DNA of 10,220 bases from a virus (Duplodnaviria > Heunggongvirae > Uroviricota > Caudoviricetes): IMG/VR virus record IMGVR_UViG_2706794662_000011; one strand, given 5' to 3'. The translations under genes and the position numbers were made by a program. Of the stretch, positions 4,328 through 9,439 are shown piece by piece (within the stretch, counting starts at the first letter, position 1; each line of letters opens with the position of its first letter). The notes beneath the pieces are model-generated. The model saw only the letters and a list, made by a program, of their open reading frames with translations, was not told where the DNA came from and made no database searches.

Positions 4328-4355
4328 TTGATTTTTCCGGAATCTGTGGTAAATT
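4328..4355 (+). promoter_or_regulatory. Candidate late promoter (pR'-like), where a Q-utilisation site would be expected
   Basis: -35 TTGATT at 4328..4333, a 16-bp spacer ending in TGG (extended -10 TGn), and -10 TAAATT at 4350..4355. It lies between Q and the first downstream terminator. Confidence 0.4.
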
Positions 4356-4402
4356 CGTCATAACGATGGGCGTTTTATGCCTGACGTTAGAAGAGTTTCT
4401 AC

Positions 4403-4428
4403 AACCCGCCGCCGAGCGGGTTTTTTAT
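4403..4428 (+). terminator. Intrinsic terminator (tR'-like) about 50 nt downstream of the candidate late promoter
   Basis: Stem aacccgc, loop cgccga, stem gcgggtt, followed by ttttttat. Confidence 0.55.
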
Positions 4429-4546
4429 GACTGAAATCGCGTCAGTACAGTAAACGCGCTGGTGGCGGTGAATACCTGTCTTTCAGCTTGCTGGCTTTTT
4501 CGACAAGAGTTATTGGTGTGTCACGTTAACCGGAAAAGGAAAAGAC

Positions 4547-4744
4547 ATGCTAAAACAGCAGGATATGACAGAAACCGCCAGAGTGGTGTTTAATGAATTA
4601 AGCGTTACCGAACCGGCGACAGTCGGGGAGATAGCGCAGAATACTTACCTTTCACGCGAACGCTGCCAGTTAATACTGACCCAGCTGGTTATGGCGGGTC
4701 TGGCAGACTATCAGTTCGGTTGTTACAGACGCCTTCCGCAGTGA
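4547..4744 (+). CDS. Small putative winged-helix/HTH DNA-binding protein, 65 aa
   Basis: RBS aaggaaaag upstream of the ATG. The segment ATVGEIAQNTYLSRERCQLILTQLVMAGL looks like an HTH recognition region. It is the first ORF after the tR'-like terminator. Confidence 0.45.
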   Translation: MLKQQDMTETARVVFNELSVTEPATVGEIAQNTYLSRERCQLILTQLVMAGLADYQFGCYRRLPQ

Positions 4745-4771
4745 AGGCTTTTTTATTTGTGGTAAATGGGC

Positions 4772-4802
4772 GGCTGGTGGGTGTTAGGGGCACCCACCAG
4801 CC
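4772..4802. promoter_or_regulatory. Perfect 12-bp inverted repeat with a 7-nt spacer (GGCTGGTGGGTG ttagggg CACCCACCAGCC); candidate operator or RNA stem-loop
   Basis: Read directly. No T-tract follows on either strand. It sits between the HTH ORF and the methyltransferase. Confidence 0.5.
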
Positions 4803-4876
4803 ATCTGCTCATGCGTTGGGTTCACAAGCAAACCTCAGGCCCACTGCTTTGCGCAAAAGCAGAATGAGCCTATCAG

Positions 4877-5136
4877 NNNNNNNNNNNNNNNNNNNNNNNN
4901 NNNNNNNNNNNNNNNNNNNNNNNNNNNNNNNNNNNNNNNNNNNNNNNNNNNNNNNNNNNNNNNNNNNNNNNNNNNNNNNNNNNNNNNNNNNNNNNNNNNN
5001 NNNNNNNNNNNNNNNNNNNNNNNNNNNNNNNNNNNNNNNNNNNNNNNNNNNNNNNNNNNNNNNNNNNNNNNNNNNNNNNNNNNNNNNNNNNNNNNNNNNN
5101 NNNNNNNNNNNNNNNNNNNNNNNNNNNNNNNNNNNN
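4877..5136. other. N-masked gap (260 N); hides the 5' part of the methyltransferase gene
   Basis: Run of n characters. Confidence 1.
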
Positions 5137-6997: not shown

Positions 6998-7026
6998 AAA
7001 AAAAGCCCGCGCTGGGAGACGCGGGC
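6998..7026 (-). terminator. Minus-strand intrinsic terminator, back to back with the copy B terminator
   Basis: Stem gcccgcg (7005..7011) pairs with cgcgggc (7020..7026). The A7 run at 6998..7004 is a T-tract on the minus strand. Confidence 0.45.
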
Positions 7027-7094
7027 GGCAAGGAATAAACAATAAAACGTGAAGTAATATTTCAGCTGGCGAATAATACCCCATAGTAATCACT

Positions 7095-7117
7095 CTGCGC
7101 AACTGCGCGGTCTTTTT
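7095..7117 (+). terminator. Intrinsic terminator upstream of the esterase gene
   Basis: Stem ctgcgc, loop aact, stem gcgcgg (one G-U pair), followed by tcttttt. Confidence 0.5.
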
Positions 7118-7219
7118 CGAATTGCGGGCTGTCGTCTCTCTTCTGCCATTGTCCTGTAACTTCCGGACTTCAGCCCGCTCCTTATTTTACTCACAATATT
7201 ATCCCGGCCGGGAGGATTC

Positions 7220-9073
7220 ATGGCATTTAAACACTATGACGTGGTCAGGGCGGCATCGCCGTCAGACCTTGCGAAACGACTGACACAAAAACTGAAGGAG
7301 GGCTGGCAGCCGTTTGGTAGTCCGGTGGCCATAACCCCTTATACCCTGATGCAGGCGATTGCAGCAGAAGGTGATGTGGTCGTCAGTGGTGCAACTGAGC
7401 CGGAGTGGTACTACGTCATCGTACTGGCCGGGCAATCCAATGCCATGGCTTACGGTGAAGGTCTTCCGCTTCCGGATTCATACGATGCGCCCCATCCGCG
7501 CATTAAGCAACTGGCCCGTCGTAACACAGTGACTCCCGGTGGTGAAGTATGCGTATTTAACGACATCATTCCTGCTGACCATTGTCTGCATGATGTTCAG
7601 GATATGAGTACGATTAACCATCCCCGGGCTGACCTGAGCAAAGGGCAGTACGGCTGTGTCGGACAGGGCTTACATATTGCCAAAAAACTGCTTCCGTATA
7701 TCCCTAATAATGCGGGGATCCTGCTGGTACCATGCTGTTGTGGTGGTTCGGCATTCACCCAGGGCACGGAGGGGACATTCAGCGAGTCCACGGGGGCCAG
7801 TCAGGATTCGGCTCGCTGGGGAGTGGGTAAGCCGTTATATCAGGATCTGCTTTTCCGCACGAAGGCAGCATTGCAGAAAAACCCGAAAAACGTTTTGCTG
7901 GCGATATGCTGGATGCAGGGGGAATTCGATATGACGAATGCCAGTTACGCCCAGCAGCCAGCAGCATTTCTTGCAATGGTACAGCAGTTCCGTGCTGACC
8001 TTGCCGGGCTGGCGGCGCAGTGTCACGGTGGAAGTCCGGCATCAGTCCCCTGGATTTGTGGCGACACGACATACGCGTGGAAACAAGAACACGGTACGCA
8101 ATATGAAGTGGTATATGGTGCATATAAAGGTAAAGAATCCCAGCAGATTTATTTTGTTCCCTTTATGACCGATGGTAGCGGAGTTAATACACCGACAAAC
8201 AACCCGTCAGAAGATCCTGATATTGCCGGGTCTGGTTATTACGGTTCGGCATCCCGAACGAACAAAAACTGGGTATCATCAAATCGCCCGACGCATTTCA
8301 GCTCATGGGCGCGTCGTGGCATTATTCCCGATCGTATGGCAACTGCTATTCTGAACGTAGCCGGTCGCACCTTAGCCTTCATTAGTGGTAAGGCACCGGA
8401 AATCAAACCCTCGCCCGGCGGCGACACGCCATCGGGGCCGTCTGAAGATGCATCCATACGCACAATCTCCCTGTTGCCGACAGCCGGAGACGCTGCTGCG
8501 CAGGGCTGGAGCATTAAGAATGGCGGAGTTCAGTTGTCAGATGGTGTATTTAAGATCACCAAGCAGAGCAATAAAGCCTGGTCCCTGACGCGCCCGGTGG
8601 ATGACGCAGTCTCCCTGCTGACACGGGGTGGCAGACTGAGCTGTAAGTTTCGACTGTCAGGCGCACTGACCAACAACCAGTTCGGTCTGGGAATTTATCT
8701 GTATACCGATGTAGCGTTACCTGACGTCGTGGCGATGACCGGGACTGGTAACCCGTTCCTGATGTCGTTCTTCACCCAGACCACAGACGGCAAACTGAAT
8801 CTGATGCATCACAAGAAAGCAGGAAACACAAAGTTGGGCGAGTTCGGGAATTACAGTAACGACTGGCTGACGCTGGAGCTGGTGTTCACCGCCGGCAGTG
8901 CCACGGTTACTCCGAAACTGAATGGAGTGGCTGGCCCGGCATTCCAGGTCATAAAAGACAGTCTGACACTGGGGCTGAATGCGCTGACGCTGACGGATAT
9001 TACCAAAAATGCAGCGTATGGCGTTGAGATAGAAAGTCTGGTGCTGGAGATAAATGCACCGGCATCATCATAA
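7220..9073 (+). CDS. Prophage NanS-p-like sialate O-acetylesterase (SGNH/SASA esterase with an N-terminal DUF1737-like region), 617 aa
   Basis: RBS GGGAGG upstream. N-terminus MAFKHYDVV. Esterase motif VIVLAGQSNAMAYGEG with the catalytic Ser in GQSN. Sits between the tRNA region and the holin, as in Stx-type lambdoid phages. Confidence 0.8.
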   Translation: MAFKHYDVVRAASPSDLAKRLTQKLKEGWQPFGSPVAITPYTLMQAIAAEGDVVVSGATEPEWYYVIVLAGQSNAMAYGEGLPLPDSYDAPHPRIKQLARRNTVTPGGEVCVFNDIIPADHCLHDVQDMSTINHPRADLSKGQYGCVGQGLHIAKKLLPYIPNNAGILLVPCCCGGSAFTQGTEGTFSESTGASQDSARWGVGKPLYQDLLFRTKAALQKNPKNVLLAICWMQGEFDMTNASYAQQPAAFLAMVQQFRADLAGLAAQCHGGSPASVPWICGDTTYAWKQEHGTQYEVVYGAYKGKESQQIYFVPFMTDGSGVNTPTNNPSEDPDIAGSGYYGSASRTNKNWVSSNRPTHFSSWARRGIIPDRMATAILNVAGRTLAFISGKAPEIKPSPGGDTPSGPSEDASIRTISLLPTAGDAAAQGWSIKNGGVQLSDGVFKITKQSNKAWSLTRPVDDAVSLLTRGGRLSCKFRLSGALTNNQFGLGIYLYTDVALPDVVAMTGTGNPFLMSFFTQTTDGKLNLMHHKKAGNTKLGEFGNYSNDWLTLELVFTAGSATVTPKLNGVAGPAFQVIKDSLTLGLNALTLTDITKNAAYGVEIESLVLEINAPASS

Positions 9074-9158
9074 AAAGTGAGCCAGCCAAATGGAAGGTAT
9101 CGTTAAACTCACCGGTAGTGTCAGTGGGTCGTCTGAGATGCCTGCATGAGTTATCAGA

Positions 9159-9188
9159 GCCATCAGTACTTAACTGGTGGCTTTTTTT
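9159..9188 (+). terminator. Intrinsic terminator after the esterase gene
   Basis: Stem gccatcagt, loop actta, stem actggtggc (one G-U pair), followed by ttttttt. Confidence 0.5.
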
Positions 9189-9223
9189 ATTGTTGTCAGC
9201 TTCCGGATAACGGGAGACGGGGT

Positions 9224-9439
9224 ATGTACCAGATGGAAAAAATCACAACAGGTGTGTCATACACCACGTCAGCGGTGGGAACGGGCTACTGGTTCCTGCA
9301 GTTGCTGGACAGGGTTTCCCCGTCTCAGTGGGCGGCAATAGGCGTGCTGGGGAGTCTGCTGTTTGGGCTGCTGACATATCTGACTAACCTGTATTTCAAA
9401 ATCAGAGAGGACCGTCGTAAGGCTGCACGGGGAGAGTAA
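9224..9439 (+). CDS. S: S21-type pinholin (class II holin), 71 aa, with a dual-start motif (MYQMEK)
   Basis: Matches my recollection of phage 21 / Stx-phage S: [54 protein letters not shown]. The ORF-track start at 9146 is rejected because a terminator lies inside that extension. Confidence 0.85.

Follow-up and report, generated by a model that had tools for sequence, protein, structure and literature searches.

A probable late-operon cargo slot of the Shiga toxin phage type, without stxAB, in a defective Qin-backbone prophage of Shigella sonnei

In lambdoid and Shiga toxin (Stx) phages, the late promoter pR′ is constitutive, and its transcription is halted at the terminator tR′ in lysogens unless the Q protein modifies RNA polymerase; morons are insertions downstream of pR′ that are co-expressed with the late genes (PMC7547250, PMC4104026). 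Tree et al. (2014; PMC4104026) described a moron site 3′ of pR′ with convergent small RNAs (sRNAs), namely EcOnc27/EcOnc02 in Sp5, and reported it also for Sp3, Sp4, Sp9, Sp10, Sp11, Sp15, and Sp17. PasD, which is related to STnc100, is located upstream of an esterase gene (bioRxiv 10.64898/2026.05.13.724894), and both EcOnc27 and PasD are expressed in lysogens (PMC4104026, PMC8550237, PMC12711010). The published logic of such loci is that of a Q-controlled moron slot with tRNAs, convergent sRNAs, and a NanS-p esterase. The stretch analyzed here, referred to as the window, is the virus record IMGVR_UViG_2706794662_000011 with a full length of 10,220 nucleotides (nt), and the locus in question comprises its positions 4328-9439, between a Q gene and a holin gene.

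This locus is, with a probability of roughly 90%, a slot for late-operon cargo (morons) in a Shigella sonnei lambdoid prophage that is defective and has a Qin backbone, and its cargo is of the Stx-phage type but without stxAB. The slot layout is ordinary and already described, and the non-Stx arrangement is common in Escherichia coli and Shigella prophages; what is mildly new is the exact position of the cassette boundaries and a divergent middle sRNA unit that is not recognized by Rfam. The parts follow each other in the order Q, pR′-like site, tR′, a gene for a 65-residue helix-turn-helix (HTH)-like protein, methyltransferase, tRNAs, a noncoding interval, NanS-p-type esterase, and holin. A reading made earlier from the sequence only had proposed this late-region order, and Pfam, tRNA, and terminator evidence places all of its named parts at the positions it had given, as listed below.

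3501-4322, plus strand: Q-family late antiterminator (QuuQ/YdfT type), 273 residues (PF03589, E = 1.6e-53)
4328-4355, plus strand: pR′-like late promoter candidate, TTGATT-16 nt-TAAATT, read from the sequence immediately after Q
4403-4428, plus strand: tR′-type intrinsic terminator, hairpin AACCCGCCGCCGAGCGGGTT and T-run (terminator scan)
4547-4744, plus strand: 65-residue small protein, weakly similar to winged-HTH (TrmB-like) proteins (PF01978, E = 0.0026, below the Pfam cut-off)
4877-5921, plus strand: orphan N6/N4 DNA methyltransferase, 352 residues (PF01555, E = 1.3e-25), with its start codon inside the first mask
5962-6037, plus strand: tRNA with a CAU anticodon, an ileZ-type tRNA-Ile2 (Rfam and ARAGORN, which labels it Met)
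6045-6356, plus strand: tRNA-Arg(UCG) argN, tRNA-Arg(UCU) argO, a terminator, and the STnc100 unit 1 promoter region (CP061367.1 segment 6859-7137)
6357-6510, plus strand: STnc100 unit 1, 5′ end masked (RF02076, 123.6 bits at CP061367.1 segment 7102-7291 and 136.9 bits in E. coli O121)
6549-6722, plus strand: divergent STnc100-like unit 2 (RF02076, 30.1 bits, under the gathering score), with its own terminator
6788-6997, plus strand: STnc100 unit 3, predicted RNA approximately 6817-6991 (RF02076, 161 bits)
6998-7179, minus strand: putative sRNA at the place of AgvB/AsxR, convergent with unit 3 and antisense to the 5′ leader of the esterase
7220-9073, plus strand: NanS-p-type sialate O-acetylesterase (Pfam domains DUF1737, SASA, and C-terminal DUF6645)
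9224-9439, plus strand: class II (P21 S-type) holin with the dual-start sequence MYQM (PF04971, E = 9e-33)

Two parts of the locus are masked by N runs in the window, and their content was recovered from the complete genome CP061367.1, which agrees with the window at 100% of the unmasked bases; the genome of S. sonnei 53G (HE616528.1; strain identity, PMC5447701) differs from the window by one base, and many public contigs encode an esterase with exactly the same residues. The lengths of the N runs are arbitrary: the 260 N at 4877-5136 stand for 292 nt and the 278 N at 6079-6356 for 245 nt, and because the runs alter the length, distances and reading frames across the masks are untrustworthy. 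If the runs preserved length, the methyltransferase would be frameshifted by a deletion of 32 nt and the tRNAs would be followed by 33 additional bases, a reading dismissed on the evidence of the 100% identical genome. The first mask contains the start and the N terminus, including the DPPY motif, of an intact 352-residue methyltransferase, and the second contains the remainder of tRNA-Arg(UCG), followed by tRNA-Arg(UCU), an intrinsic terminator, and the STnc100 unit 1 promoter region with the 5′ end of that unit. No stx sequence is present in the visible or the recovered masked sequence of the window, and the longest hidden open reading frames (ORFs) in the interval between methyltransferase and esterase, of 77 and 68 residues, overlie the argO tRNA gene and STnc100 unit 1. 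The sequence-only reading had seen no toxin gene and had left the two masks to be filled; as recovered from the identical genome, they hold neither stx nor a credible ORF. Likewise, the annotation of the collinear regions of E. coli O121 and enteroaggregative E. coli (EAEC) 042 includes no Shiga toxin gene, and none appears in the feature names listed for the best collinear matches in E. coli. A prophage that converts its host to Stx production carries stxA and stxB downstream of Q and pR′, and the window has neither gene in that place.

The type of slot is defined by comparison with the Stx2a phage WGPS2 (NC_049941; Sp5/933W type), in which the order is winged-HTH gene, methyltransferase, ileZ-argN-argO, stx2A-stx2B, one STnc100 unit, esterase, and holin. 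The window shares with Stx2 phages the succession of tR′, 65-residue gene, methyltransferase, tRNAs, cargo, STnc100 unit, NanS-p esterase, holin, YdfR, and lysozyme, and the identity to WGPS2 is 91-94% across the winged-HTH gene, the methyltransferase, and the tRNA block. The window, however, lacks stx2AB and has two extra units of the STnc100 family in their place. The homology with WGPS2 stops at the T-run of the argO terminator and restarts, 45 nt past the stop codon of stx2B, at TCACAATTCAG, with which the STnc100 unit begins. The same sharply bounded slot is therefore filled either by the stx2AB genes, in a segment of 1336 nt, or by unit 1 plus unit 2, in 474 nt. The WGPS2 unit that follows stx2B has 87% identity to unit 3, whose counterpart, kept downstream of stx2B in Stx2 phages, is EcOnc27 (PMC12711010, PMC4104026). 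Outside these shared parts the two elements differ: the Q and pR′ module of the window is not that of the Stx2 phage, its esterase is only 56% identical to the Stx2a-phage homologue, and the DUF1378 and DUF826 genes that precede the holin in the Stx2 phage are absent. The proposal that this is a toxin-free version of the Q-to-holin slot of Stx-type lambdoid phages is thus upheld by the position of stx2AB in WGPS2, between argO and the esterase.

Approximately 860 nt of noncoding sequence are visible before the esterase in the window. The earlier reading had described this interval as holding only structured noncoding repeats and a gap; the repeats are real, but they are not empty filler, consisting of sRNA genes of the STnc100/PasD family and a convergent sRNA. 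Three tandem matches to the Rfam family RF02076 (STnc100; gathering score 47 bits) are present, and each unit ends in an intrinsic terminator. Units 1 and 3 pass the gathering score, whereas unit 2 fails it and is a divergent relative instead of a curated member of the family; it shares the architecture of unit 1, with a long closing stem, internal hairpins, and a terminator (fold z = -3.1). For comparison, the experimentally validated sRNA PasD2 scores only 41 bits against RF02076. When the three units are aligned with the unit of the Stx2a phage, one from a non-Stx phage, and PasD2 of enteropathogenic E. coli (EPEC), they share a structure in which compensatory changes occur in 8 of the 31 base pairs. 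Promoter-like hexamers (TTGTCT or TTGCCT, 17 nt, TTAAAA) lie ahead of units 1 and 3, and unit 2 has a good extended -10 element, TGCTATATT (TGnTATATT), at 6559-6567. The predicted 5′ end of the units, GCAUGGUGAAUCC, is the same as the 5′ end of PasD2 that was defined by RNA-seq. The promoters of the sRNAs were assigned by alignment to this mapped PasD2 end and from hexamers read by eye, and all of them, like the pR′ candidate, fall below the rule of the sigma-70 scanner (at least 9 of 12 consensus positions). By analogy with EcOnc27 and PasD, the units are probably expressed in lysogens.

In E. coli O121 and EAEC 042, the Prokaryotic Genome Annotation Pipeline (PGAP) marks, over unit 1 and on the minus strand, a partial pseudogene for a "hypothetical protein" (segments 8012-8137 and 8013-8138, respectively, corresponding to approximately 6340-6465 of the window). 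This is probably a spurious call, and the sRNA units are left unannotated in RefSeq.

The putative minus-strand sRNA is approximately 93% identical to a 182-nt Hfq-associated candidate from EPEC, E2348C_1409.E2348C_1408.IGR, found by the sequencing of ligated interacting RNAs (RIL-seq), which its authors linked to EcOnc08/21/42 of enterohemorrhagic E. coli (EHEC). The scan found a terminator, GCCCGCGTCTCCCAGCGCGGGC-T7, and a GATAAT promoter match on the minus strand, and a seed-like CCUUGCC motif is complementary to GGCAAGG, the target motif of the EPEC candidate. An assignment of the element to AgvB or AsxR (RF02702/RF02703) was rejected, as no match with E ≤ 1 was present in the window and both the seed and the terminator differ in alignment. 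In the phage PPyecE_EH1910 the equivalent position is occupied by AgvB (96.5 bits).

Upstream of the sRNA units lies a tRNA cluster in which CAU (Ile2), UCG, and UCU anticodons succeed one another, the ileZ-argN-argO order, as predicted by ARAGORN and Rfam on the identical genome; the sequence-only reading had expected one or more tRNAs here, and prediction on the unmasked sequence gives three. The CAU tRNA is identical at 76 of 76 positions to the tRNA-Ile annotated by PGAP in O121 and to ileZ of WGPS2. The argN gene is visible at 6045-6078, with its remainder masked. In comparison with the WGPS2 tRNAs, argO is identical at 77 of 77 positions, ileZ at 100%, and argN at 73 of 77. The intrinsic terminator that follows the cluster, GGCTCGCTTTTGCGGGCC-T8, lies in the second mask. 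The three are rare-codon tRNAs that read AUA, CGA/CGG, and AGA/AGG. In the local genes, the codons ATA, AGA, and AGG occur 12.2, 6.1, and 3.1 times per 1000. These rates are roughly three times the E. coli average. Weak Rfam matches to OmrA-B, P26, isrK, rsmX, and, on a tRNA, Plastid-ycf2 were set aside as chance or terminator-driven.

The Q gene lies directly upstream of the slot, as in other lambdoid moron slots. Its product is 40% identical to YdfT/QuuQ of the K-12 prophage Qin and contains DnaJ-like CxxCxGxG zinc-finger repeats, and PGAP labels the same gene "antitermination protein" in O121 and EAEC 042. The promoter candidate at 4328-4355 directly follows Q and so agrees with the lambdoid pR′ paradigm. 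It is followed by the tR′ terminator, for which the scan match at CP061367.1 segment 5185-5204 corresponds to 4403-4422 of the window; homology with the Stx phage starts only at 4403, which is consistent with a promoter module that is specific to its Q. Terminator-like sites are in excess, with 18 in the scanned region as compared with 5.0 ± 2.2 in shuffled sequences. On the plus strand seven of these lie between pR′ and the esterase and an eighth lies before the holin, an excess that fits a tight dependence of the lysis genes on Q. Individual sites include one at 4731-4754, after the 65-residue gene (CP061367.1 segment 5513-5530), and one at 9156-9191, after the esterase.

The lambdoid paradigm suggests how the slot would operate in an intact relative. 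Q produced from the early operon would join RNA polymerase at the constitutive late promoter that lies immediately 3′ of its own gene, and the modified polymerase would pass tR′ and about seven more intrinsic terminators to give a single long late transcript spanning the winged-HTH gene, the orphan methyltransferase, the three tRNAs, the sRNA units, the esterase, and the lysis genes. In the absence of Q, pR′ transcripts would end at tR′. The sequence-only reading had put all accessory genes of the interval under Q. That arrangement is the one predicted for the late transcript, but it need not extend to the sRNAs, since each unit has its own promoter-like site and terminator and its expression need not depend on Q. 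The units and the convergent sRNA could thus be expressed in the lysogen independently of Q, and the slot sRNAs are probably Hfq-dependent base-pairing regulators.

Several points weigh against the reading of the locus as a working Q-controlled slot with sRNA genes. The activity of the QuuQ-type protein as a Q factor is predicted from its family membership, and the hexamers of the pR′ candidate are weak, agreeing with the consensus at 8 of 12 positions, below the 9/12 threshold of the scanner. The prophage is broken in the source genome, and Q may never be made. Expression and Hfq association were shown for the homologues EcOnc27 and PasD, from which those of the S. sonnei units are inferred. 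The -10 elements of units 1 and 3 (TTAAAA) are poor, and the 5′ ends of these units derive only from alignment to the PasD2 5′ end. Unit 2, with its score under the Rfam threshold, may be a copy in decay.

Three other explanations of the interval were considered. That the masks conceal a coding cargo gene, whether a toxin or another, has nothing in its favor except that the masks exist, and it can be given almost no credence because seven independent assemblies, one of them 100% identical, give 292 nt and 245 nt at the two sites, and a stx cassette of 1.3 kb is too large for either gap. The locus might instead descend from an Stx prophage from which stxAB was deleted, with the interval as the deletion scar. 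The flanks are of the Stx2-phage type, with ileZ and argO 100% identical and unit 3 87% identical to the unit after stx2B, and the preprint on Pas sRNAs (bioRxiv 10.64898/2026.05.13.724894) argues that stx is frequently lost after its acquisition. In place of a scar, however, there are 474 nt of organized sequence comprising two promoter-to-terminator sRNA units, with no fragment of stx in the interval; the tandem of units 1 and 2 is found in induced temperate phages as well as in 672 complete E. coli genomes; and the Q and backbone are of the Qin type, with an esterase 56% identical to that of the Stx2a phage. The exchange may have run in either direction, and a past loss of stx appears very unlikely.

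A third explanation concerns the repeats themselves, which could be stacked terminators or insulators, or decaying duplications, that silence the lysis genes and have no function as RNA. Each unit has a strong intrinsic terminator, the density of terminators is far above that in shuffled sequences, the fold z-scores of units 1 and 3 are unremarkable (-0.6 and -1.1, respectively), and expression is known from homologues. On the other hand, EcOnc27 and PasD1/2 are abundant Hfq-associated RNAs in EHEC and EPEC lysogens (PMC4104026, PMC8550237), helices are preserved by compensatory changes across units of very different sequence, and conserved promoter-like elements lie 5′ of every unit, so that an interval made up of terminators without RNA function is unlikely, although somewhat less so than the loss of stx. 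The preferred reading, a moron slot filled with sRNA genes in place of stx2AB, might be taken further in a joint proposal, which we regard as doubtful: unit 2 would represent an undescribed third branch of STnc100/PasD with its own seed, and the promoter-to-terminator sRNA units would act as recombination joints at which cassettes like stx2AB are swapped. If such joints were real, the S. sonnei remnant, with flanks 91-100% identical to those of Stx2 phages, would be a possible landing pad for stx by homologous recombination.

The protein-coding cargo is as the earlier reading had it, a small HTH protein and a DNA methyltransferase, with the qualification that the HTH match is weak; the methyltransferase is intact. 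The 65-residue gene is also present in O121, EAEC 042, and the Stx2a phage. Of the methyltransferase, the C-terminal 260 residues are visible in the window, ending at 5921, and its ORF is intact at CP061367.1 segment 5677-6735; matches to the NCBIfam models of adenine-specific methyltransferases are below the cut-off. NCBIfam provides no names for the winged-HTH protein, the esterase, the holin, or Rem. The esterase gene, just upstream of the holin, has the domain architecture of NanS-p proteins, and its GQSN serine motif (residues 71-74; SASA/SGNH) is consistent with its assignment, by predicted architecture, as a NanS-p phage sialate O-acetylesterase. The holin is labeled "class II holin" by PGAP in O121 and EAEC 042. 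A lysis cassette follows the slot on the same strand, with the holin, YdfR, and the start of a lysozyme gene at 9814. In the spacer between esterase and holin (9074-9223), a homologue of PasA/PasC was sought, and no blastn match to the E2348/69 PP2 locus with PasA was found; the spacer is 99.4% identical to that of prophage PP6, for which no Pas sRNA is reported at this position (PasB is located elsewhere in PP6). The neighboring genes are as follows.

2065-3123, plus strand: DUF968 (YdfU-like) protein
3124-3504, plus strand: RusA
9444-9758, plus strand: YdfR/DUF1327 protein

Further upstream, the window contains a hok/sok type I toxin-antitoxin system, with the sok RNA at 912-1087 (RF01794, 112 bits) and the Hok coding sequence at 1025-1237 (PF01848). 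A weak isrK-like match (25.7 bits, below threshold) lies just 3′ of hok/sok, at 1246-1327.

The element survives as a remnant. At its two ends (1-72 and 10149-10220), the window has a perfect inverted repeat of 72 nt, which is the terminal part of the insertion sequence (IS) IS600, and in complete S. sonnei genomes full inverted copies of IS600 bracket the 10-kb piece of prophage; the repeats at both ends explain why the contig broke there, and recombination could invert the segment. Approximately 18 codons into the lysozyme gene, at 9866/9867, its sequence is broken off by an IS21-family element, the end of which carries five repeats of approximately 23 nt containing TTTGGCAT (9860-9985); IS600 in turn interrupts the istA gene of this element at 10149. 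Tail genes come directly next in the identical genome, and Rz, terminase, portal, and head genes are missing. The expectation that the cargo would be induced with the prophage is consequently doubtful for this genome, in which an IS600-bracketed remnant has a disrupted lysozyme gene and has lost the genes from terminase to head; induction of such a remnant is at best uncertain.

As a discovery the locus is of low value, but the absence of stx from it in S. sonnei is now firm despite the masks. The practical gain is that the limits of the stx2AB cassette are now defined relative to the sRNA units. In addition, approximately 1 kb of sRNA genes at the slot is left unannotated by annotation pipelines or is overlaid by a spurious pseudogene.

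The sequence-only reading had allowed that the layout might turn out to be an ordinary, well-described non-Stx arrangement, and this is the case: the 5.1-kb layout is collinear, at 98-99% identity, in 166 complete E. coli genomes, and the type of site was described by Tree et al. (2014; PMC4104026). In E. coli O121 201805972, EAEC 042, and the 164 other complete genomes, the content is identical, including the three sRNA units. The prophages of O121 and EAEC 042 retain lysozyme, Rz, terminase, and head genes, whereas the S. sonnei copy is truncated and ridden with IS elements. The tandem of units 1 and 2 is more widespread, being present in 672 of 5426 complete E. coli genomes and in five phage records. 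As in the moron site of Tree et al., the stretch from the moron to the conserved esterase ORF contains an STnc100-type sRNA on the plus strand and a convergent sRNA on the minus strand; in contrast to that site, the minus-strand RNA of the window is of the EcOnc08/21/42 type and not AgvB/AsxR as defined by Rfam, and the moron consists of further sRNA units and not of a coding sequence.

PasD1 and PasD2 of EPEC E2348/69 occupy the same place 5′ of the esterase and have the same 5′ sequence, GCAUGGUGAAUCC, and closing-stem architecture as the window units, but PasD diverges from them after approximately 25 nt, whereas units 1 and 3 of the window are canonical STnc100. In prophage PP6 of E2348/69 (segment 1479-3288), a single STnc100 unit is split by ISEc13 and only two tRNAs are present, indicating that copy number and IS content of the slot vary further. 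The slot of phage PPyecE_EH1910 has other genes and no tRNAs.

A Qin-like backbone occupies 1025-4322 and 9224-9866 of the window, with hokD, rem, ydfU/DUF968, and YdfT-type Q genes on one side of the slot and essQ-type holin, ydfR, and rrrQ-type lysozyme genes on the other. K-12 Qin has the same backbone, hokD-rem-ydfU-Q ... essQ-ydfR-rrrQ, but its slot holds ynfS, cspF, cspB, and ynfU and is devoid of tRNAs, methyltransferase, STnc100 units, and esterase. The S. sonnei element thus combines cargo of the Stx-phage type with a backbone of the Qin type, into which that cargo has recombined.

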